Shown one piece after another: positions 11,258 through 19,996 of a DNA stretch of 63,634 nt; the first letter of the stretch is position 1; every line of letters starts with the position of its first letter. Below the pieces are notes generated by a model, which was given only the letters and a program-made list of their open reading frames with translations, made no database searches and had not been told where the DNA came from. The position numbers and the translations under genes are program-made. Source of the stretch: Eubacterium sp. CAG:841 (GTDB taxonomy: Bacteria > Bacillota > Clostridia > Oscillospirales > CAG-272); NCBI GenBank assembly GCA_000437375.1, contig FR898229.1, positions 45,697-109,330 on the forward strand. Direction: 5' to 3'.

Positions 11258-11330
11258 GCCCCATTAGCTCAGAAGGTAGAGCACATGACTTTTAATCATG
11301 GTGTCCGGAGTTCGACTCTCCGATGGAGAC
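11258..11330 (+). tRNA. tRNA-Lys (anticodon UUU), 3' part supplied by the integrated element (attL)
   Basis: Hand-folded cloverleaf. D arm is GCTC/GAGC. Anticodon arm is CATGA-CTTTTAA-TCATG. T arm is CGGAG-TTCGACT-CTCCG. The acceptor GCCCCAT/ATGGAGA has 2 mismatches, and no CCA is encoded at this copy. Confidence 0.85.
11289..11328 (+). repeat. attL core: 40-bp direct repeat (tRNA-Lys positions 32-71)
   Basis: CTTTTAATCATGGTGTCCGGAGTTCGACTCTCCGATGGAG is identical to 19215-19254. Confidence 0.95.
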
Positions 11331-11355
11331 GGGCATTTTTACAGCGCAGAAAAAA

Positions 11356-12246
11356 TCATGGTGTCCGCTTTTTGCCTATCGAATTATCAAGCGGACTGTA
11401 TTCATCGAAGTTACGAAGGACATAAGCCGGCGCGAAATGAACGTAATGCTCAACCATCTGCAAAGATGTATGACCGAGTATGGTCTTCAGTGTGAGCATA
11501 TCGCCGGAATTGACGAGATAGCCGGTAGCAAACGTGTGCCGGAGCAGATGAGCGTGCAGACGTTCGATTCCGGTGATCTTCTTGAGCTTGCGGAACATAT
11601 TCTTGAGAGTATCGACAGTGACGGCGGATCCGTCAGCCTTGAGGAACACCTGCGGCAGATCTGACTGCGGTCTGATCTGCAGGTAAGCCTGCAGCCGTTC
11701 GGCTGCCAGAGCGCCGATAGGAACATAGCGCTGCTTGTTACCCTTGCCGGTTACGAGAGCATAGCCTTCGGCAAGGTGCAGGCAGCTTGTCCGGAGCGTT
11801 ATGACCTCTTCTCTGCGAAGTCCGCTTCCGAGCATAAGCGATAGCATGGCAGCGTTGCGCTTGCCTTCAAAGCTGTCGGGAAGCGCGGCAAACAGCTTTT
11901 CTATCTCTGCCGGAGTGAGAACGTCCTTTACGGTCGCTCTCGCTTTCGGCAGTCTGAGCTGCGTCGGAATACATTCCTTAACGCAGCCGTTATTATAAAG
12001 CCAATTCAGAAAGGCACGGAGTGCGCGGACATGATCCTGAACGGTCACGCTGTTCTTGCTTTCGTCCTCAGTCAGAGCGATGACATATTCACGACAGAGC
12101 CGAAGCGTTATCTTCCCGCACTCTATATTGCCGACAAAGGCTATAAAGCCGTCTATCGTCTGTCGGTAGTAGGTTATAGTGTGCGGCGAGGATCCTCGAC
12201 ACTTATGGTCAAGGATATAATCATCAAATGCGTTCTTTATCGTCAT
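11356..12246 (-). CDS. int: Tyrosine recombinase / phage integrase
   Basis: C-terminal catalytic motifs 'HLLRHTFAT' and 'LGHTSLQMVEHY' are present, plus an N-terminal SAM-like domain. The gene is adjacent to attL. Confidence 0.9.
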   Translation of the reverse strand: MTIKNAFDDYILDHKCRGSSPHTITYYRQTIDGFIAFVGNIECGKITLRLCREYVIALTEDESKNSVTVQDHVRALRAFLNWLYNNGCVKECIPTQLRLPKARATVKDVLTPAEIEKLFAALPDSFEGKRNAAMLSLMLGSGLRREEVITLRTSCLHLAEGYALVTGKGNKQRYVPIGALAAERLQAYLQIRPQSDLPQVFLKADGSAVTVDTLKNMFRKLKKITGIERLHAHLLRHTFATGYLVNSGDMLTLKTILGHTSLQMVEHYVHFAPAYVLRNFDEYSPLDNSIGKKRTP

Positions 12247-13106
12247 CTTCCAACCTCTGCGACTGCGTATCGCCGGAACATAAGATCCTGCTTAAGATCC
12301 GAAACATTGCCGGTGTACTCTGTCAGATCGAATACCTGCAGAGCTTCATCGAGCGAACGATATCGCTTGACGGCGAGATAGTCGTTTTCATAGTCCGGAA
12401 AAAATGCGTCTCTTATGCGTTCCTCGCGAATAATGAATTCGGCGCGCTTCAGACCTTTTGAGCAGTAATATAAATGCGCTCCAAGCTCTTTTATACTCTT
12501 TGCAAGATTTTTGCTTATGTATTTCATTACATAATTTGAAGCGGCTTCTTTGCTTCTTACAGGCTCGAGGATCGTATAGCCGAACTTGTCCGCAAACTGG
12601 ATCCAATTGAATACTTCTTGTCCCTCTCTGAGCTTATCGACTATATACTTCGGCAATTTATTCGGAAACTGAATTCTGAACGCTTCATATTCTCTCTCTG
12701 AAAGTCCTTTGATAAAGCCGTGCATGTGCCAGGCTCCGTCCTGATGTTGCTCCGGCACTAACATGTACTTGATCTGTAAGCCGTGATTATGATTGTAGTC
12801 CTTTATGAACCTTGCAAGATCCTTGCGGAATTTTTCAAGATTGTATCTGTCATACTTCTTTGGTGAAAGCGTGAGCGTTACGAAGAACTGCCAATCGTTA
12901 CACATTGCAAGCTCGAAGATCGTGCTTCTTGCCCTTGAAATGTTGTTTTCAAGCTTTTCGTCGTTTACGTTTTCCTCTTGTTTTTCCCTGTCCGGAAACT
13001 CAAAAACTTTGTCAGTTTTATACACAACGAGGCGGTAATATCCGTCCGTATATTTCTTGATTTCTGCGAAATTACTGTAAAAGTGCCGATTATCCTTGCG
13101 GTACAT
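12243..13106 (-). CDS. HUH-superfamily rolling-circle replication initiator (Rep)
   Basis: Motif I is 'FFVTLTL', motif II (HUH) is 'WHMHGFI' and motif III is 'NYVMKYISK' with the catalytic Tyr. The stop overlaps the int start (ATGA). Confidence 0.75.
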   Translation of the reverse strand: MYRKDNRHFYSNFAEIKKYTDGYYRLVVYKTDKVFEFPDREKQEENVNDEKLENNISRARSTIFELAMCNDWQFFVTLTLSPKKYDRYNLEKFRKDLARFIKDYNHNHGLQIKYMLVPEQHQDGAWHMHGFIKGLSEREYEAFRIQFPNKLPKYIVDKLREGQEVFNWIQFADKFGYTILEPVRSKEAASNYVMKYISKNLAKSIKELGAHLYYCSKGLKRAEFIIREERIRDAFFPDYENDYLAVKRYRSLDEALQVFDLTEYTGNVSDLKQDLMFRRYAVAEVGR

Positions 13107-13192
13107 AGGTTTTTGCCCCCTTGAAAGTGTTGAATAACGCGAAAAATGATACTAAGTCAAGTTTAGTCTTTATATATTATTAGATCTAATTT

Positions 13193-13291
13193 CGCGTGCG
13201 CACACGCGCACACGCACGCGAGGAGCTTTTATTGCAATTCTGTCGGCACTGCCGGGAGTGCCGGAGAGGGGGCTGCGCTCCCCCTCTCCGG
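13193..13291. promoter_or_regulatory. Candidate replication origin / packaging-signal region of the element
   Basis: There is a 28-nt perfectly alternating pyrimidine-purine tract (13193-13220). Two GC-rich hairpins follow: CGGCACT/AGTGCCG at 13244-13263 and a 12-bp stem CCGGAGAGGGGG/CCCCCTCTCCGG at 13261-13291. Confidence 0.4.
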
Positions 13292-14140
13292 ACTCTCCCA
13301 GGAAGCTTGCCCGAACATGTCCCGTTTGCACTCTTTGCGGACATCGAGAATGTATCTCGTCTTAAGCTTGTCCCACTTCCACCGGTCAGGTACGTCATGA
13401 GTGAAGCCAAGATCATATGCTTCGCTGTAAACCTTACTGTCGTAACGTTTTGTATATGGCATCCAAAAGAAGTAGGTGTTGAAGTCGTCCTTGCCTACGT
13501 CCTTTATGTTGACTATGTCGTTTGTGACGGAGATCTCTCTCCATTTCACCTTGCCAAAAGGCAGGAACAGACAGCGGTGAAGTCCGCGAAGCTCTATCAG
13601 AGCGTTGAAACGGCCTCTGATAGGCTTTGCTATGAAGTCTGAAGCCTGTTCGGTGAAATAGCAGTGTCCCGGTATCTCTGTGTCCATCCACTGCCTGTCA
13701 AAACGTATACTGACCTGCACGTTGTTTTTTACAGCAGGGATATCGAACTTATACTGATCACAGATCTGACCTACCTCGTCGATAAAGGTAATCGAATTTC
13801 TGTCTTTGAGCTTCTCGGCGAAAAGATGTTCCGTTGTCAGCACGTCTGACATTCTTTTGTTTCTGCGGTTGCCGAGCCTGATCGGTATGTTACTGTAAAC
13901 GTGCGGCTTGCTCTTTCTTTTGTCCTTTCGGAAAGGATGAAAGAAGCAGCTTCGGCGGTACACCGCATAGGCTTTCTTATACCATTTCACGACATGCATA
14001 ACTGCCATATAGGTCTTGCCGGATCCGAGTCCGCCGATAAAACAGGTGAGGTACTCCTGCGGTATCGGCTTGCTCAGGATGATCGAAACGACAAGCCAGA
14101 CTATGAACACGCCGGCGATTATTATCAATGCGGCTTTCAT
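13229..14140 (-). CDS. Zot/pI-like P-loop ATPase (filamentous-phage assembly protein)
   Basis: Walker A is 'GGLGSGKTY' and Walker B is 'ITFIDEVGQ'. The size and position downstream of the coat genes match inovirus gene I. It has an N-terminal TM helix. Confidence 0.65.
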   Translation of the reverse strand: MKAALIIIAGVFIVWLVVSIILSKPIPQEYLTCFIGGLGSGKTYMAVMHVVKWYKKAYAVYRRSCFFHPFRKDKRKSKPHVYSNIPIRLGNRRNKRMSDVLTTEHLFAEKLKDRNSITFIDEVGQICDQYKFDIPAVKNNVQVSIRFDRQWMDTEIPGHCYFTEQASDFIAKPIRGRFNALIELRGLHRCLFLPFGKVKWREISVTNDIVNIKDVGKDDFNTYFFWMPYTKRYDSKVYSEAYDLGFTHDVPDRWKWDKLKTRYILDVRKECKRDMFGQASWESPERGSAAPSPALPAVPTELQ

Positions 14141-14694
14141 CAGTAGCTGTACACCTCGCCTTCATAGATGTGGCGGATCTTCAAACGCTCGAAATAGTTG
14201 TGCAGAAACAACTTGTTTTCGTCAGATATACCGTAAGACTCGGCAGCGTCCTCAAGATTGTACATAAGGAACGACAGGTGCTGATAGCTCCAAGCAGAGT
14301 TCGGATCGTCCAAGAAGGCTTTGAAGCTCTTAAGGTTGAACTTTGTCCAAGTCTTCTTGAGGAAACTGTAATTTGCATTTATGTAGGCAAGCGAACTATC
14401 GTAAATCGCTTGGATCTTGGTAAGGTCATCTTCCGTTTGCTGTTCCGTTGAGAACGGCGAAAAAAGATTGTAAACGCTTGCAACGACTTTGTTTAACACA
14501 TTGGTAACATTGCCGCCGAACTTTATCACGCGGGCAAAGCTCATGCTGAGAAGCCCGGCATTTATATCACGGCATTCCGTAAGGTCAAGCTGCGGAGAAG
14601 TGGCATCGAACGTGTAATCATAGGAGGAAGCAAAGCCGAACAATACGGCAAGAATCACGCAACCTATAAGGAAAAAACAAAGCGCTTTATTCAT
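14140..14694 (-). CDS. Element-encoded membrane-anchored protein (pVI-position, unknown function)
   Basis: Start at the ATG at 14694 (MNKALCFFLIGCVILAVLFGF). One N-terminal TM segment. The stop overlaps the Zot start (TGATG). Confidence 0.55.
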   Translation of the reverse strand: MNKALCFFLIGCVILAVLFGFASSYDYTFDATSPQLDLTECRDINAGLLSMSFARVIKFGGNVTNVLNKVVASVYNLFSPFSTEQQTEDDLTKIQAIYDSSLAYINANYSFLKKTWTKFNLKSFKAFLDDPNSAWSYQHLSFLMYNLEDAAESYGISDENKLFLHNYFERLKIRHIYEGEVYSY

Positions 14695-14699
14695 AAAGA

Positions 14700-17024
14700 T
14701 CAACCGCCTTTCGAAACTTTCAGTATAATGATCACCGCACCGCCGATAGCTATAATGCCGATTATCGTAAGCAGCGTAACGCCGCCTACGGAAATGTTGG
14801 ATCCTACATAAAGCGCCGAGCCGGTGAACGCGCCGAGTATTTTTGTAACAAAATCGGCAACGCCGGAATCTGACGATTTATTTTTCTGATAATTTATGCC
14901 GGCTTGCTTGCCGGCTGTAAAACTTACGTCGTCATATGTATCGTTATCATTATCCACGACGTGGATCAGGCTGCAGGCTCCGGATCCGTTGCCTGCGGTA
15001 TAGCCGGCTGAATATGCCGAATCGTCATAGCCGTCGTTATTCTTATCCACGACGTGCGTGTCAAGGCAGACATCTATCTGTATTGTGTTACTGTATTTAT
15101 CGCCACTGTCGGTCGTTTCTACAAGTCTGAACTGTACCCACTTGCTGTTATGGGCTTTCTCGTAATTCCAATCATAACTGTCTATTTCCCAAAAGCCGTC
15201 CGTATAATCAGTAGAATTTGGAAGAGGCGTCCAACCGTCGTCTGTCAGATAGTCCTGATACGTCATATACTCTATATACACGGAGTTGCTGTCTTTTATT
15301 TTTCTCCAAGAAAGCTGTCCTTGCGAGTACGAAAGCAACGGCGATGCTGTGGAAGCTGTTGCAGCTCCACTGTTATACCCTGCTGTATAACTTGAGTCGT
15401 CATAGCCGTCGTTATTTGTGTCCGTAACGTGTGTTTTGTCACAAGCTCCGGCGGCAAGCGCAGCCTGATATTCAGCTTCGGTGTAATAGCGTATTGTCGG
15501 CATTGTATAGCCTGTCAATACTTGTTTGCTTTTAGAGCATATTATATCGTCGCAAGAATATATAAAATCCCCCCATGTATCAGGAGCATAAGGCGAAATT
15601 ACAGAAAGCGTACCGTTGCCATCGGTTGTATCATACAGACACAAAAAACTCTGTGATCCGGATGAAGTCGAACCGGATGAATCGGTCGTATACGAAAAGC
15701 AAACGCGAACAGTGACAAAAAACTTTTCGGGAGTATAAAAAGACCAACCAGTAACTGTATCAATGCTTGAACCAACCGGCGTAGTATTATCATAATTCTT
15801 TTTATCTGTTATATTAAAGAACGGCGCCAAGTCGGTAATCCTATTCGGTTGAATATCTTCAACAGGCGAAGTGTGCGAAAGCGAATAAACATCATAAACG
15901 CCGACACCGTTATTCTCATCAACATAAAACCGCCCGTAGCTTTTTGCAGAAGTGGATTTTACACTAAAATACGGAAAAGCGTTTTGCGTTATTTGTTGCA
16001 GTCCACTTGACTTCTCTATTTTGCAATAATCGAAATATGTAGCATCGCTATTTACCAAGAGCAGATGATAATAAGTATCATCGATAAAAATGCGAGAAGT
16101 TTTATAGATATAATAATCGTCAAAGTATTCATAACAAGGCAGATTAGAAACTTTGGTATATGAATTCAAATAGATTGTGGAAGTAGTGGACGAAGTGTTG
16201 GAAGAAAACGCATTGATAATAGCCGACATAGGCACCGAATAAGTATAAAGAGAGCTGGTTTTATGATAAGAAGTTGAATAACCATACTTTGAAGAGCTGT
16301 AATCAACTCCGTAAAAATACAAGCAAGAGTTATAATAAACAACGTCATTTACACCGAAATAGTATGATTTACCGGAAGTATGCTTCACATATATAATGTC
16401 ACGAGCCAAAGTAGTATCACCGACATGATAACGACCTATATAAAGAGTATCTTCGTCATAATCAAAATCCATTGAGACAAAGTAATAATAATCACCGTAT
16501 TTGAAAGAATAGTTTAAGTCGTTATACCAAGCGCCAGGGAAAAAGCTTGAAGTTCTTGTATATAAATTCAAGTTGGAAAGATTTTCGGGAGTTTCGGCAA
16601 GAGTAAGACGACCGCCAAGCACATATGAAGAAGACATCGAAGTAAAATAATATTTTGTTGTGGATGAAGAAGGGTATGAAGAACCAGCAGAATTAACTTG
16701 TGTAATCCCTATTGTGTGTTCTCCTGTGGTAAGCTTGTCGCAATACGCAAGTGTTCCTACGTATTCGGAAACAGGACCGACAATATCAACTTTGAAATTG
16801 TTTCCGACAATCTCGCCGTCAACTGTAAAATACAAACCAATACAAGAGCTATCCCAAGCCGTAACCTTTGCGGTAAGCTGTCCGTTTTGAGGAATAAATT
16901 CATATGAAACAGCCGTAGAAATAGGCTCTGATACCGCCGAAACCGTCAGACTGCCGGCTACGGTCAGAGCGAGGACAAGCACGGCGGTGATAAGCGCCGC
17001 AACCCTTTTATTTTTCTTTGACAT
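14700..17024 (-). CDS. Large secreted, C-terminally anchored protein (pIII-like adsorption/minor coat candidate)
   Basis: The ATG at 17024 sits 8 nt after GGAGG. It has a signal peptide 'VAALITAVLVLALTVAGSLTVSA' and a C-terminal TM 'VTLLTIIGIIAIGGAVIIIL' followed by KVSKGG. Three 'HV.D.NNDGYDD' repeats are present. Confidence 0.65.
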   Translation of the reverse strand: MSKKNKRVAALITAVLVLALTVAGSLTVSAVSEPISTAVSYEFIPQNGQLTAKVTAWDSSCIGLYFTVDGEIVGNNFKVDIVGPVSEYVGTLAYCDKLTTGEHTIGITQVNSAGSSYPSSSTTKYYFTSMSSSYVLGGRLTLAETPENLSNLNLYTRTSSFFPGAWYNDLNYSFKYGDYYYFVSMDFDYDEDTLYIGRYHVGDTTLARDIIYVKHTSGKSYYFGVNDVVYYNSCLYFYGVDYSSSKYGYSTSYHKTSSLYTYSVPMSAIINAFSSNTSSTTSTIYLNSYTKVSNLPCYEYFDDYYIYKTSRIFIDDTYYHLLLVNSDATYFDYCKIEKSSGLQQITQNAFPYFSVKSTSAKSYGRFYVDENNGVGVYDVYSLSHTSPVEDIQPNRITDLAPFFNITDKKNYDNTTPVGSSIDTVTGWSFYTPEKFFVTVRVCFSYTTDSSGSTSSGSQSFLCLYDTTDGNGTLSVISPYAPDTWGDFIYSCDDIICSKSKQVLTGYTMPTIRYYTEAEYQAALAAGACDKTHVTDTNNDGYDDSSYTAGYNSGAATASTASPLLSYSQGQLSWRKIKDSNSVYIEYMTYQDYLTDDGWTPLPNSTDYTDGFWEIDSYDWNYEKAHNSKWVQFRLVETTDSGDKYSNTIQIDVCLDTHVVDKNNDGYDDSAYSAGYTAGNGSGACSLIHVVDNDNDTYDDVSFTAGKQAGINYQKNKSSDSGVADFVTKILGAFTGSALYVGSNISVGGVTLLTIIGIIAIGGAVIIILKVSKGG

Positions 17025-17184
17025 GCAAAACACCTCCAAGCATTGATATAAGGAGCAGGATTATCGCAAGCGACATCCCATAGGTAAGAAGCTCCACTAC
17101 ATTTATACGCGCCATTACCTTTACGGCTGACGTCGCAATGTGCAGCGGAAGATCTACAAACAAAATTTTAAGCACGTTCATCAT
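17008..17184 (-). CDS. Small hydrophobic protein (minor coat candidate)
   Basis: 58 aa counted from the ATG at 17184, which overlaps the upstream stop (ATGA). It has one clear TM segment, 'GMSLAIILLLISMLGGV'. Confidence 0.45.
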   Translation of the reverse strand: MMNVLKILFVDLPLHIATSAVKVMARINVVELLTYGMSLAIILLLISMLGGVLHVKEK

Positions 17185-17486
17185 CGCCTTTTTGTCACCA
17201 CCCATACCACAAGGAATATAGGCAGGAACACCACAAGCGATGTTGTTGCCATTGTAAACAGCACGATAAGACTTGAATTGTCCCTGATAACGTCTGCCGG
17301 GAAGATATACGCCCAGCAGTCATAGATTATGCTGTATATATTGCTCGTCAGATCTGTCTCTGTCTCCGTCGCTTCGGCTGCCGTTTCTATCGGTTCGGAC
17401 ACATCCGTTCCACCGTCTGCGGCATATGCCGGAACACACATCAGAGCGAGGATCAGAACTGCGACAAGCGCCGTTTTTATTTTCAT
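17181..17486 (-). CDS. Coat-like protein: signal peptide, acidic N-terminus, TM, basic C-terminus (major coat candidate)
   Basis: Signal peptide 'MKIKTALVAVLILALMCVPAYA|ADGG'. The mature N-terminus is acidic and the C-terminus is 'VVFLPIFLVVWVVTKRR'. AGGAGG RBS. Confidence 0.6.
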   Translation of the reverse strand: MKIKTALVAVLILALMCVPAYAADGGTDVSEPIETAAEATETETDLTSNIYSIIYDCWAYIFPADVIRDNSSLIVLFTMATTSLVVFLPIFLVVWVVTKRR

Positions 17487-17506
17487 AATTACCTCCTGTT
17501 AGAACA

Positions 17507-17528
17507 AAAGCCCCGTTTCCGGGGCTTT
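17507..17528 (-). terminator. Intra-operon rho-independent terminator after the 183-aa coat-like gene
   Basis: On the minus strand: AAAGCCCCGGAAACGGGGCTTTTGTTCT. Confidence 0.65.
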
Positions 17529-17545
17529 ATTTGTTTTGATTTTTA

Positions 17546-18094
17546 TCAGCCTACTCTTGCACGTGACTTGATCCACTTCCATATGCCGAAGCCGGCACCG
17601 AGTATGATCGCAGTTATGATGAGTACGCCGAGTATTGAAAGCTCACCGGTATCCTTGTTGATAAAGATTACGTCGAATGTGCTTACTGCCGCGCCTGCTA
17701 CGGACGGAACGAACGATCCTACTCCGTCGCCGACTTCCGTCAGAATCTGCTTTATGAAGCCGTCTCCGGCTACCTGAAGCGAGATCATTGTGGAAGGTGC
17801 GCTCTTTGTGTAAGATGTAGCATTGCTTGCCGGCTTTGCTACTACCGTGACAAAGTATGTTCCGGATTTTACAAGATATCCGGAAAGGTCGACCGACGTG
17901 CCGGTTACCGTTGCTATAAGCGTATCGCCGGAATAAACGTCGTATGAAGCCGCATTTTCTACGGTCGTCCATGAAAGCGTTTTATCCGTAAGCGTTACGG
18001 TGGGTGCGGTAAGTGCAGACGCTGCGCTTACGCCGAGTATGGCAAAGCTGCAGATAACGAATGCGCAAAGGATAATTGCGAAAATCTTTTTCAT
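17546..18094 (-). CDS. Secreted Fn3/Ig-like domain protein with a pVIII-like C-terminal TM + basic tail
   Basis: The ATG at 18094 follows AAAGGAGG. Signal peptide 'MKKIFAIILCAFVICSFAILGVSAASA'. An 'LSWTTVENAASYDVY' Fn3-like module is present. The C-terminus is 'ILGVLIITAIILGAGFGIWKWIKSRARVG'. Confidence 0.65.
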   Translation of the reverse strand: MKKIFAIILCAFVICSFAILGVSAASALTAPTVTLTDKTLSWTTVENAASYDVYSGDTLIATVTGTSVDLSGYLVKSGTYFVTVVAKPASNATSYTKSAPSTMISLQVAGDGFIKQILTEVGDGVGSFVPSVAGAAVSTFDVIFINKDTGELSILGVLIITAIILGAGFGIWKWIKSRARVG

Positions 18095-18146
18095 TGAATT
18101 AACCTCCTTTCCTCGTTTGTTTATGTTAATTTCACGTGAAATCATA

Positions 18147-18437
18147 TTATGCCTTCTCCTTTCCCGGAAGAAGTCTGACTGCCGTAAGCTTCGGCTCTCT
18201 TACTCCGAACACCTGATATACAAGCTCGATCTCCTGATTGAGAAGATCCGAAAAGTTTTTTGTGCCTATAAGCGATTCTTCTTTGAAAGGCACCTTGACA
18301 GTGTCACAGAAAAATCCGTTTACCTCCGGCACTTCATTTGTGAAGACGTACAACTCTACGTTATCATACGTTACCTTGCGTCCGTCCTCCGATACGAAGT
18401 CGCCTTTCTTTCTTCTCCATCCCATTACTTTTATCAT
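18147..18437 (-). CDS. First gene of the structural operon, unknown function (gV-position; ssDNA-binding protein is only a positional guess)
   Basis: 96-aa soluble ORF with ATG and an AAGGA RBS. It lies directly upstream of the coat-like genes. Confidence 0.5.
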   Translation of the reverse strand: MIKVMGWRRKKGDFVSEDGRKVTYDNVELYVFTNEVPEVNGFFCDTVKVPFKEESLIGTKNFSDLLNQEIELVYQVFGVREPKLTAVRLLPGKEKA

Positions 18438-18492
18438 TGCTTTTCCTTTCTACCCGTGCGTTATGCTTTCGGGATTTTGTGTGTTATGATTT

Positions 18493-18566
18493 ATGACCTA
18501 TCGGTCATATCTGATATAATCATATTACTAATCAGTCATAATGTCAATATAATCTATCGGTCATAT
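18493..18566. promoter_or_regulatory. Divergent promoter/operator region of the element
   Basis: The 13-bp direct repeat CTATCGGTCATAT occurs at 18498-18510 and 18554-18566. The first copy lies within the palindrome ATGACC-N4-GGTCAT. On the plus strand there is TGATATAAT (18512-18520). On the minus strand there is TTGACA (18548-18543), an 18-nt spacer, then TATGAT. Confidence 0.5.
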
Positions 18567-18607
18567 GATAAAATTATTAGAATTAACAAAAACGGAGGAC
18601 GTTTATT

Positions 18608-18835
18608 GTGTACTATTACCAAAGATTGAAAGATTTAAGAGATGATGCGCACCTCAGACAAGATCAAATAGCGGTTATATTGAAAACTTGCCAGGAGCAG
18701 TACAGCAAGTACGAAAGAGGGGTGCAAGAGCTTCCCATGCATCACTTTATTACTCTTGCCAAGTTCTACAACGTATCGCTTGACTACCTTGCCGGACTTA
18801 TAGACGAGCCGCGCAAGCTGCACGATGAGAAATAA
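18608..18835 (+). CDS. XRE-family HTH regulator (prophage repressor candidate)
   Basis: GTG start 8 nt after GGAGG. 'QDQIAVILKTCQEQYSKYERG' is a typical Cro/CI HTH. It is divergent from the structural operon. Confidence 0.8.
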   Translation: MYYYQRLKDLRDDAHLRQDQIAVILKTCQEQYSKYERGVQELPMHHFITLAKFYNVSLDYLAGLIDEPRKLHDEK

Positions 18836-18865: not shown

Positions 18866-19214
18866 GCCCGTGACCGGCTCTCTCCGGCGCACGCTCTGCG
18901 GAGCTTAGCTTCTCGATTCACTACAACCGCTACGGCGGGATTCTGAACGATCTGCGGATCGGGATAGTTCAAAGCAAAGCCAATTTACTCTGTTCAACAG
19001 GTCTTATCTCCATCTTGGGCGGGCGAACCTTATCGGCGGTTCTCCCTTGCCATCCCTCTCCCTCCGAGAACGCGATAACATTTGTGCCGATTTGAAGCGA
19101 ATACACGCGCTCTAAGCGTATTTTAAGACATAATCAAGCTGATTTGACATCCGATTAAGAAAGGGAGGCTTGTGGGGCTTCTAAACCCTCTGCGCCGACG
19201 GAAGCAAATTCAGG

Positions 19215-19254
19215 CTTTTAATCATGGTGTCCGGAGTTCGACTCTCCGATGGAG
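19215..19254 (+). repeat. attR core: 40-bp direct repeat, followed by the native tRNA 3' end (C-ACCA)
   Basis: Identical to 11289-11328. It continues as ...ATGGAG-CACCA and then a terminator. There is no tRNA 5' half upstream. Confidence 0.95.
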
Positions 19255-19345: not shown

Positions 19346-19627
19346 TTACGGGGTAAACTGTGAAACAAGCTCTTTCAGTTCGGCTATTGCCTCACGCATG
19401 ATGTCACATTGACTGCCCAATTTCAAAATTTGCCTTTTCATATCTTGCAACACTTCATCTGCAGGCCAAGCTTTTTTCTGTTCCTCGGCAAAAGTCTCCG
19501 GAAGTTCCGCTTTGTCCAATCCAAGCATAGCAAGATCGACGTTAAGTCCGATAAAAAGTCCCATTATAGTCTGATCGGTTTCGTCGATTTCTGCAAAAAG
19601 TTTTTCAATTTCTTCTTTAATCTTCAT
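19346..19627 (-). CDS. Hypothetical protein (acidic, helical)
   Basis: 93-aa ORF, divergent from the XRE gene. No recognisable motif. Confidence 0.5.
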   Translation of the reverse strand: MKIKEEIEKLFAEIDETDQTIMGLFIGLNVDLAMLGLDKAELPETFAEEQKKAWPADEVLQDMKRQILKLGSQCDIMREAIAELKELVSQFTP

Positions 19628-19768
19628 ATAAGAATGCCTGCTTTACATATTTATGGTCTTATTATAACATACATAAATACGTAAATCAAGTACATACGAA
19701 CGTATGAATGATATAATTTTTCAAAATGTACGCAATTTATGCGGGAAGCGGTGAAAAGGAGCGGCTTT

Positions 19769-19996
19769 ATGCACTGTTATCAAAGGTTGCGCGACTTAAG
19801 GGAAGACAAGGATTTAAGTCAGGGAAAAATTTCACAGCTTTTGAAAATATCTCAGCAGCACTACTCAATGTATGAAATGGGCAAGCGTGAGCTTCCGATG
19901 CATCATTTCGTTACCCTTGCAAAATTCTATAACGTATCGCTTGATTATCTTGCGGGACTTACAAACGAGCCGCGCGAGCTTTATAAAGACGAGTAA
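19769..19996 (+). CDS. XRE-family HTH regulator, paralog of the prophage repressor
   Basis: The ATG at 19769 follows AAAGGAG. By manual alignment, 47 of 75 positions are identical to the 18608-18835 product. The C-terminal halves are nearly identical. Confidence 0.8.
   Translation: MHCYQRLRDLREDKDLSQGKISQLLKISQQHYSMYEMGKRELPMHHFVTLAKFYNVSLDYLAGLTNEPRELYKDE

Follow-up and report, generated by a model that had tools for sequence, protein, structure and literature searches.

The question raised by a stretch of 63,634 nucleotides from Eubacterium sp. CAG:841 (contig FR898229.1, positions 45,697 to 109,330; this whole stretch, at its full length, is referred to below as the window) is whether a compact run of genes within it constitutes the genome of a filamentous phage or an integrated element of some other kind. 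In a preliminary description of this DNA, these genes were ascribed to an inovirus-like prophage of a monoderm host. The results presented here agree with this assignment, as the ATPase encoded by the element groups with the Zot/pI proteins and its small proteins are coat-like, and it is very probable that the segment 11329-19254 of the window, 7,926 nt in length, is an integrated temperate inovirus-like prophage (order Tubulavirales) of an uncultured gut Clostridia bacterium. The element, which is inserted in the 3' end of a tRNA-Lys(UUU) gene, contains 10 genes (90% coding), viz. nine tightly packed genes on the minus strand and one divergent repressor gene, all of them located between two direct repeats. 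The nine minus-strand open reading frames (ORFs), extending from 11356 to 18437, encode, in the order in which they are read, proteins of 96, 182 (199 in the ORF), 101, 58, 774, 184, 303, 287 and 296 amino acids (aa).

The limits of the element are given by its insertion site. The integration target is the tRNA-Lys(UUU) gene at 11258..11330 on the plus strand (identified by ARAGORN; Rfam tRNA score of 52.6 bits), whose 3' part forms the core of the left attachment (att) site, attL (11289-11328), and a copy of the tRNA-Lys 3' end, the attR core, is found at 19215..19254 on the plus strand, beyond which lie the original CACCA and the host terminator. These two cores constitute a perfect direct repeat of 40 nt, which is unbroken on both sides of the element. 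When the 93-aa host protein encoded just outside attR was used as a query, long metagenome contigs from the same species were retrieved (98-99% identity), and in 22 of these 24 contigs the genes for a GH130 protein, a helix-turn-helix (HTH) protein, the 93-aa protein, tRNA-Lys and an M23 peptidase follow one another with nothing inserted, while the site is occupied in the other two (L036 and L039; contigs are designated here by our own L numbers). Examples of the empty site are provided by L030-L035, L037 and L038, and an occupied site is also seen in L010. In L030, the empty site corresponds to the left flank of the window, the tRNA and the right flank in an alignment that holds base for base, and because of this the bounds of the element can be placed at 11329 and 19254. 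The 7,926-nt element is therefore a discrete, strain-variable insertion, which is absent from most strains. On the attL side of the near-identical copies in L010, L013, L014 and L015, the tRNA reads through to GATGGAGCACCA and is followed by an element-borne terminator and then by the integrase gene (int), from which it appears that the phage normally rebuilds the 3' end of the tRNA.

The relationship of the element to filamentous phages is indicated by its 303-aa protein (13229..14140, minus strand), a Zot/pI-like morphogenesis ATPase in which an N-terminal transmembrane (TM) helix (residues 2-22) precedes the Walker A motif GGLGSGKT(Y), beginning at residue 36, and the Walker B motif ITFIDE at residues 117-122. 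A word-indexed search identified 21 relatives of this protein, and the three most distant of them (36-39% identity, E 1e-43 to 1e-31) carry the Pfam Zot domain PF05707. When a profile was searched against 1.84 billion cluster representatives, 507 matches were obtained at E<=1e-3, of which 146 reached E<=1e-30 (the clusters of the ATPase family being defined at 50% identity), and PF05707 was matched by 60 of the 141 best representatives (best 5e-11), generic AAA by 16 and PhoH by 15. Because homologues with E values of 1e-43 to 1e-31 carry PF05707, and 60 of 141 representatives match Zot, the window ATPase can be regarded as pI/Zot-like in a transitive manner. Among the phages in GenBank, the ATPase matches only six circular bajarodino virus genomes (Inoviridae, annotated as Zot; best 8e-15 in tblastn), and when its relative P0019 was used as the query, the same bajarodino set was recovered together with a porcine Inovirus sp. 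(best 3e-26). No match was found among 72,556 plasmids. When the AlphaFold2 (AF2) model of the ATPase, with a predicted local distance difference test score (pLDDT) of 66, was compared with the BFVD structures by Foldseek, the four best matches were to unnamed or uncultured proteins, with an unnamed one at the top (E 2e-11, TM-score 0.58/0.65) and an uncultured-virus protein at rank 4, while 'Zonular occludens toxin [Inoviridae sp.]' occupied ranks 5, 7 and 8 and a protein of Acholeplasma phage L2 rank 6. A TM segment located before Walker A is also present in the Zot proteins (224-293 aa) of bajarodino 5, 31 and 71 and of the porcine Inovirus sp. The Zot matches within the family, the absence of a match among plasmids and the restriction of its phage matches to Inoviridae support the placement of this ATPase, by transitive sequence homology, in the Zot/pI family and not among the non-Zot families (e.g. 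conjugative or partition ATPases), which the preliminary description had named as the contrary outcome.

The arrangement of the genes leads to the same interpretation. All nine ORFs are found on the one strand as had been described, the start/stop overlaps between them (ATGA at 12243-12246, TGATG at 14138-14142 and ATGA at 17181-17184) are real, and the two Walker motifs are where they were said to be. The signal-peptide and TM patterns reported for the products are likewise borne out by hydropathy, which indicates a signal peptide and a C-terminal TM segment in the 182-, 101- and 774-aa proteins (these calls, here and below, are made by a hydropathy heuristic and not by TMHMM or SignalP), and the size of 7.9 kb agrees exactly with the 7,926 nt that separate the att repeats. 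No secretin family is matched in the element in Pfam or PHROGs, and the absence of capsid, portal, terminase and tail genes also holds, the relevant PHROG matches being weak domain-level ones (FN3-tail, 7.5e-4; P-loop-terminase, 0.008). For the signal-peptide/TM protein that had been given as 183 aa, the gene and the topology are as described but the length is 182 aa. The att repeats, the tRNA-Lys gene and the divergent XRE repressor gene with its two palindromic operators, all of which had no place in the preliminary description, complete the picture of the element.

A comparison with the Ff phages (M13, fd and f1) is informative in this regard. The cyclic order of the Ff genes, viz. Rep, single-stranded DNA (ssDNA)-binding protein (SSB), small coats, adsorption protein, membrane protein, ATPase and intergenic origin, is the same in the element; in both cases the genes lie on one strand, and the terminator that follows the candidate major coat gene of the element has its counterpart after Ff gene VIII. 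In the parallel drawn earlier with gV-gVIII-gIII-gVI-gI, the assignments to gVIII, gIII and gVI are a matter of positional analogy only. The location of Rep downstream of the ATPase should not be interpreted as a non-canonical layout, as had been suggested, since upon circularisation the order becomes ATPase, intergenic region, Rep and, further on, SSB and coats, which is the Ff order. It will similarly be incorrect to regard the possession of its own integrase as non-canonical, as tyrosine recombinases and tRNA att sites are among the inovirus features listed in passages of Roux 2019 (PMC6813254). The element differs from Ff in several other respects. It is without a gIV secretin, and Ff pI, whose Walker A is at residue 8, has no N-terminal anchor like that of the window ATPase. 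In Ff pI the TM segment is C-terminal to the ATPase domain. Further, the Ff phages have no integration and no repressor, their pVIII is without a folded domain, and their coats are unrelated in sequence to those of the element. The temperate inoviruses of the Pf/CTXphi type are, like the element, equipped with a repressor and integrate at tRNA or dif sites, but their hosts are diderms, with secretins or use of a host secretin, unlike the host of the element, and between them and the element no sequence similarity is detectable beyond the P-loop family.

If the element is a filamentous phage, then its operon should specify a major coat protein, and the best candidate is the product of the second gene (17546..18094, minus strand; the 199-aa ORF extends to 18145). 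Its start is most likely the ATG at 18094, which is located behind the Shine-Dalgarno (SD) sequence AAAGGAGG. The resulting 182-aa protein consists of a signal peptide, a fibronectin type III (FN3) domain and a coat module of about 75 aa. Its residues 27-101 gave a phmmer match to chitinase A1 (1k85, FnIII domain; 9e-5), whereas the C-terminal 60 residues share 50% identity with a protein of 76 aa that stands alone at the same position in L003 (E 9e-17), and the module also resembles proteins of 77 aa in L004 and 73 aa in L005. A hidden Markov model of the coat module distinguishes three forms, viz. a bare form of 73-77 aa in L003, L004, L005, L018 and L019, a form with a signal peptide only in L021 (mature length of about 76 aa), and the form with both signal peptide and FN3 in the window lineage, L006, L008, L016 and L017. 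The module begins with an acidic/amphipathic stretch, continues as a hydrophobic helix some 20 residues long and ends in a tail that contains 4-5 basic residues. Known filamentous phage coats are also made with a signal peptide (M13 procoat) or without it (Pf3 coat), and by analogy the occurrence of the module in both states mirrors this difference. Directly 3' of the gene, an intrinsic-terminator hairpin is present (17507..17528, minus strand), and a hairpin with a T-run is found at the same position, in unrelated sequences, in L003, L004, L005 and L008. The FN3-coat protein is favoured as the candidate for the major coat because of its coat-like module, the three forms of this module in relatives, the position of its gene as second in the operon and the conserved terminator after it; the family of the 101-aa protein is a fair alternative. 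Since the coat module is also found bare or with only a signal peptide in related phages, the FN3 domain looks like a recent modular addition. That the 182-aa protein is in fact the major capsid protein, so that an FN3 domain is borne by each subunit along the filament in a natural form of polyvalent phage display, is put forward as a tentative proposal, which may well prove to be wrong. If true, such an FN3-covered shaft may be possible since a monoderm imposes no secretin pore, and it might help the phage to adhere to gut mucus or polysaccharide.

The genes on either side of the coat gene are also in keeping with a structural module. The first of them encodes a soluble, beta-rich protein of 96 aa (18147..18437, minus strand), which has no TM segment and whose AF2 model is all-beta (pLDDT 50). 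When this model was compared by Foldseek with 350,542 PDB chains, the 15 best matches were all to the Ff gene V protein (E 0.15-0.66, TM-score 0.42-0.48, which is non-significant), and the list continued with PriB and SSB folds; by sequence, the protein has no match. The modelled fold is thus suggestive of a gene-V-like SSB. The 101-aa coat-like protein (17181..17486, minus strand) has a signal peptide, an acidic N-part, one TM segment and a KRR tail, and would be about 79 aa after removal of the signal peptide; its orthologues are 54-104 aa in length and share the motif W..IFPADVI.DN. A match of this protein to the TrbC/VirB2 pilins (E 0.003, below the cut-off) was rejected, as it covers the signal peptide only. 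The next gene (17008..17184, minus strand) encodes a 58-aa coat-like protein with a single TM segment, which may be a minor or a major coat, and its orthologues in L003, L004, L005 and L008 are 55-58 aa long. The 774-aa protein (14700..17024, minus strand), a candidate for the pIII-like adsorption protein, is secreted and C-terminally anchored, with a signal peptide, a C-terminal TM segment and three D-x-N-x-D-G-Y-D-D repeats. Its centre (window 15491-16588) is replaced by unrelated sequence in the 98%-identical L013 (1351-2385) and L014, where the protein is 752 aa long, and its counterparts in relatives are of 385-442 aa; an exchange of this kind suggests a receptor-binding protein that undergoes domain exchange. 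The last protein of the module, of 184 aa (14140..14694, minus strand), has one N-terminal TM segment and occupies the position of Ff gVI. Its orthologues (189-235 aa) lie directly upstream of the ATPase in L003, L004, L005 and L008, and it has no family match in Pfam, PHROGs or NCBIfam. For seven genes of the element, the ratio of nonsynonymous to synonymous substitution rates (dN/dS) against L008, a 75%-identical relative, is 0.07-0.25 (0.25 for the 58-aa gene), with dS near saturation, and for the 184-aa and 774-aa genes dS is too saturated for the ratio to be used. Because these values indicate purifying selection, the small ORFs can be considered real genes.

Replication and integration functions are encoded by the two genes that follow the ATPase. 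The 287-aa protein (12243..13106, minus strand) is an HUH rolling-circle replication initiator (Rep), which matches PF23343 (REP_ORF2-G2P) with 1.6e-12, at 48 bits and thus above the cut-off of 27.8, and phrog_3419 with 2e-13. Its motifs are FFVTLTL, HMH (127-129) and YVMKY (192-196), the last of these containing two tyrosines, which we take to be the two-tyrosine motif of the phiX174 gpA type. Its best matches are the Rep proteins of circular Inoviridae genomes (1e-38 in tblastn). The 296-aa protein (11356..12246, minus strand) is a Xer-like tyrosine integrase (PF00589, 1e-34; phrog_1 integrase, 3e-50), with NCBIfam matches that are XerC/XerA-like and under the curated cut-offs; neither Rep nor the integrase has a TM segment by hydropathy. 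Between the ATPase and Rep genes is an intergenic region of 122 nt (13107..13228, minus strand), containing a GC-rich hairpin (about 13193-13220), the palindrome TTAGATCTAA (about 13180-13189), a promoter-like TTGACT and an SD sequence for rep. The core of about 50 nt comprising the hairpin and palindrome is invariant, save for one 2-nt gap, in L008, L016 and L017, whereas the flanking genes are 73-80% identical, and it is taken here as a candidate for the (+) origin. The fold of the hairpin upstream of rep is without significance when folded as DNA (z -0.8), and the same is true of the rep-upstream and att-proximal non-coding DNA generally (z -0.8 to -1.0). A second conserved non-coding block (18968..19068, minus strand) is 81-88% identical to L006 and L008, where the genes are 70-75% identical. 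This block, which has no Rfam family and no significant fold, is by its conservation a candidate for a cis-acting sequence (a packaging signal, the (-) origin or Int arm sites). Over the whole element, Rfam finds the tRNA alone.

The temperate character of the element is indicated by its divergent gene (18608..18835, plus strand), which encodes a 75-aa repressor of the XRE family (HTH_19, 2e-9; HTH_3, 1.4e-8; phrog_8). The divergent promoter region (18492..18566) contains two operators, viz. the 19-nt palindrome TATGACCTATCGGTCATAT at 18492-18510 and a near copy of it at 18548-18566, together with a near-consensus promoter for the structural operon, TTGACA-17-TATGAT (18547-18519), and this region has a fold with a z of -2.97. 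When the corresponding regions are compared (window 18495-18748, L010 5406-5646 and L036 6797-7197), the promoter/operators and the N-terminal half of the repressor are found to be swapped together, so that three versions of this half, each with its own operator region, are present in prophages that are otherwise 98-99% identical, while the C-terminal half of the repressor and the downstream leader are identical in all three. Heteroimmune temperate phages are marked by co-variation of this kind between repressor and operator sequences, which lends support to the repressor and operator assignments made here. A related observation concerns the chromosome just outside attR (19346-19996), where the 93-aa ORF (minus strand) and a divergent 85-aa XRE gene (plus strand) lie next to attB. 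The 85-aa protein is 63% identical to the prophage repressor, and the gene pair is also present in strains without the prophage. A counterpart of this pair is found in the L006/L008 lineage, and the repressor region of the L010 prophage contains a patch that resembles the chromosomal XRE/93-aa region. The chromosomal genes could be what is left of an older element, or they could provide resident immunity.

The same gene order, viz. repressor (minus strand), SSB-like protein, coat module, proteins of about 100 and about 58 aa, large anchored protein, protein of about 190-235 aa, ATPase, Rep and recombinase, is found in L003, L004, L006, L008 and L021, and it is also that of L005 when this contig is read as a circle, although the contigs L003-L005 show no terminal overlaps. 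The 75%-identical relative in L008 is located at the equivalent tRNA-Lys in a sister lineage. While the Rep and Int of the window are 92% and 87% identical, respectively, to those of L008, the structural proteins show 37-75% identity, which is a further pointer to mosaicism. In L004 (5877-6860) and L005 (1592-2626, 3411-4454), Rep_trans (PF02486) is present in place of PF23343, and L005 has an IS30-like HTH_38+rve transposase in place of the tyrosine integrase; the replication and integration modules are exchangeable. In L006 (5362-20394; ENA scaffold LOKM19-1 ... scaffold_497), the 75%-identical relative is present in two tandem copies, which show 100% identity across 7,541 nt, repeat at a period of 7,492 nt and are joined by an attP-type junction. 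This pattern would represent either a true tandem array, of the type that is classic for CTXphi prophages, or co-assembled circular DNA, and either of these would indicate that this relative is active, although an assembly artefact is possible. A DUF2726 (PF10881) gene located beside the repressor in L003 (414-911) and L004 (350-847) is lacking in the window and may be an accessory gene or moron. The relatives detected in species-representative genomes are from metagenome-assembled genomes titled Clostridia, Clostridiales or Eubacteriales, with the exception of one bin (L016; CAVKJG010000002.1, 'Sphaerochaetaceae bacterium'), which carries the same prophage (ATPase 94% identical) in a host region that is syntenic at 82-89% identity. 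In view of this shared synteny and of the titles of all other relatives, the 'Sphaerochaetaceae' label was set aside, and it is probably wrong. The host genes in the window (PFOR, RqcH/EfbA-like, DltB-like and others) fit an anaerobic Firmicute.

The element can also be compared with the inoviruses already described from similar hosts. In passages of Roux 2019 (PMC6813254), inoviruses were detected by a pI-like ATPase, single-TM proteins of 30-90 aa and att sites that lie either within a tRNA or beside an integrase; four candidate families were placed on monoderm or wall-less hosts, and Y-recombinase, S-recombinase or transposase integration modules and several types of rolling-circle replication were recorded. 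The element has 7,926 nt and 10 genes, with 40-nt repeats in tRNA-Lys next to int, and among its small proteins the 58-aa protein has one TM segment, the 101-aa protein a mature length of about 79 aa, and the coat module 73-77 aa in relatives. As described in parts of Burckhardt 2023 (PMC10061712), inovirus prophages of 6.5-8.5 kb flanked by direct repeats are present in gut Enterocloster and Hungatella, for which DNase-protected DNA and filaments were shown, with the Enterocloster virions being secreted. By the descriptions in these passages (PMC6813254, PMC10061712), the element is alike in its size (6.5-8.5 kb), direct repeats and occurrence in gut Clostridia, as well as in having a pI-like ATPase as the sole conserved marker, 10-16 short ORFs and no secretin. 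However, its ATPase taken singly does not match Pfam Zot, and the passages of PMC10061712 and PMC6813254 make no mention of a fusion of FN3 with a coat or of an ATPase anchored at its N-terminus. The only phages in GenBank that are matched by both ATPase and Rep are uncultured circular Inoviridae genomes from mammal faeces (bajarodino, PQ006120-PQ006181; Dulem, PP511337-PP511726; Inovirus sp., MT135295), which are 4.7-8.8 kb in size and whose proteins are 23-37% identical to those of the window. In one of them, the circular Dulem virus 70, Zot is followed by Rep as in the element, whereas the four records of this kind that were opened have no annotated integrase, unlike the element.

Several results weigh against the interpretation of the element as an inovirus-like prophage and have to be set beside those given above. 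On its own, the window ATPase has no Pfam Zot match at E<=1 and reaches phrog_197 ('Zot-like toxin') with 1e-3 at best, and its Foldseek matches in PDB are to generic RecA/RAD51 folds, which do not discriminate, the Zot N-domain 2r2a being at rank 32. In hhalign, the alignment of the ATPase family with the single sequences of M13 pI and B5 ORF8 is weak (probability 17-33%), and after its N-terminal anchor the ATPase has no further TM segment and no periplasmic C-domain, unlike Ff pI. In the same vein, profiles of 18 and of 141 ATPase sequences gave matches to PDB sequences at the P-loop level only, that of the 18 close relatives failing to reach 2r2a by sequence. The AF2 model of the 96-aa protein is of low confidence, and the coat, SSB and adsorption proteins and their orthologues match no known family in Pfam, PHROGs or NCBIfam. 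Such matches are usually lacking for inovirus coat proteins. As regards the extrachromosomal form, a search of JGI metagenomes for the exact attP pattern of the window lineage was negative, and a pattern scan of IMG/VR with the ATPase alignment gave no relative. The 7,974-nt Logan contig L015 was considered as an excised circle and rejected, since its ends are the last k-1 bases common with the chromosomal att contexts (de Bruijn branch points); it is not a circle and is hence silent on circularity. Neither a circular form nor ssDNA or particles have been seen for the window lineage. Lastly, the attL of the window copy (11320-11335) has a deletion of 38 nt (GCACCA, the element-borne terminator and CTTTTCT) in comparison with the sequence seen in L010 (12815-12892), L013, L014 and L015. 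This gap leaves a tRNA-Lys(UUU) with G1-A72 and C3-A70 mismatches in the acceptor stem and no encoded CCA; a loss of tRNA function in this strain is possible, as is an error of assembly.

The last two of these points bear on the alternative that survives best, viz. that of a filamentous prophage that is cryptic or defective, in which the genes are kept while this copy no longer excises or makes particles, so that it is a passenger or a domesticated island. The deletion is unique to the window copy in the comparison with L010, L013, L014 and L015, it removes the 3' end of the tRNA, the element-borne terminator and sequence adjacent to the core, and the searches of JGI metagenomes and IMG/VR provided no attP or circular evidence for this lineage. 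However, none of the nine ORFs is truncated, each having the length found in 98-99% identical copies from several independent samples, the dN/dS values given above point to purifying selection, the 40-nt core is intact on both sides, and the element is carried by a minority of strains, as is expected for a recent acquisition. Hence, we consider it unlikely, though deserving some weight, that the prophage is defective. A considerably smaller probability is assigned to a pleomorphic enveloped virus that leaves its host by budding (plasmavirus- or pleolipovirus-like), in which the 774-aa protein would be the spike, the small TM proteins those of the envelope and the ATPase the conserved NTPase. 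The core of the pleolipoviruses comprises a spike with a signal peptide and C-terminal anchor, small membrane proteins, an NTPase and a rolling-circle Rep, a set that is also present in the element, and in the BFVD fold search the protein at rank 6 was the 37.2-kDa protein of Acholeplasma phage L2 (E 1.5e-5). However, related Clostridia prophages gave filaments by electron microscopy, as reported in passages of PMC10061712. Further, the sequence family of the ATPase overlaps Pfam Zot and its best named fold matches are to Inoviridae Zot, the acidic, hydrophobic and basic-tail pattern of the coat module is that of inovirus coats, and the candidate SSB resembles the gene V protein (non-significantly). 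Actinomycete integrative and conjugative elements (AICEs) have a layout consisting of Int, a rolling-circle Rep, a membrane ATPase, small membrane proteins and a tRNA site. Although the content of the element is that of this layout too, relatives carry Rep_trans (PF02486) instead of PF23343, and Zot is placed within the FtsK-HerA superfamily in a passage of PMC6813254, a non-viral integrative element of the AICE type or of the integrative and mobilizable element (IME) type, in which rolling-circle replication, a single membrane P-loop translocase and small membrane proteins serve as spread or transfer factors, is the least probable of the alternatives and can be given very little credence, as the ATPase family matches Zot and not FtsK/TraB, the ATPase has no match among the 72,556 plasmids, no relaxase, coupling protein, VirB4, FtsK/TraB or T4SS ATPase is matched in Pfam, PHROGs or NCBIfam, homologous pairs of Zot and Rep are known from small circular genomes of animal faeces that were deposited as complete, and a role in the capsid agrees with the occurrence of procoat-like proteins both with a signal peptide and without one.

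If the element is an inovirus-like prophage, as preferred here, then its life cycle may be envisaged as follows. Upon loss of the repressor, Int would excise the element as a circle, and Rep would nick the origin, for which the conserved hairpin and palindrome that immediately precede rep are the probable site. The strand with the sense of the genes would then be produced by rolling-circle replication. This ssDNA would be coated by the 96-aa protein, which the N-terminally anchored ATPase, possibly together with the 184-aa protein, would swap for the membrane-inserted coat proteins, and the filament would be extruded through the single membrane with no secretin being required. The 774-aa protein would cap the filament and bind the receptor, while the FN3-coat protein, if it is the major coat, would put the FN3 domain on the filament surface.

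Based on these results, the element joins an already published kind of phage, viz. the inovirus prophages of gut Clostridia (Roux 2019; Burckhardt 2023), and its one unusual trait is a coat-like protein with an extra fibronectin-type domain. The short Zot clade with its N-terminal anchor, most of which is overlooked by standard Pfam annotation, and the heteroimmunity cassettes are also worthy of attention. It provides a well-delimited filamentous prophage in an abundant uncultured Clostridia species of the human gut, for which both att sites and the empty site are defined, as are three immunity types. In addition, it brings to light a large clade of Zot-like ATPases that are short and anchored at the N-terminus (507 clusters at 50% identity), and because over half of the representatives scanned, as well as the window ATPase, get no Pfam Zot match, current counts of inoviruses from gut monoderms may be too low. 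Should the FN3-coat protein prove to be the major coat, it would provide a natural template for the high-density display of domains on filaments, and it would be a candidate for mediating contacts of the phage with mucus or glycans.

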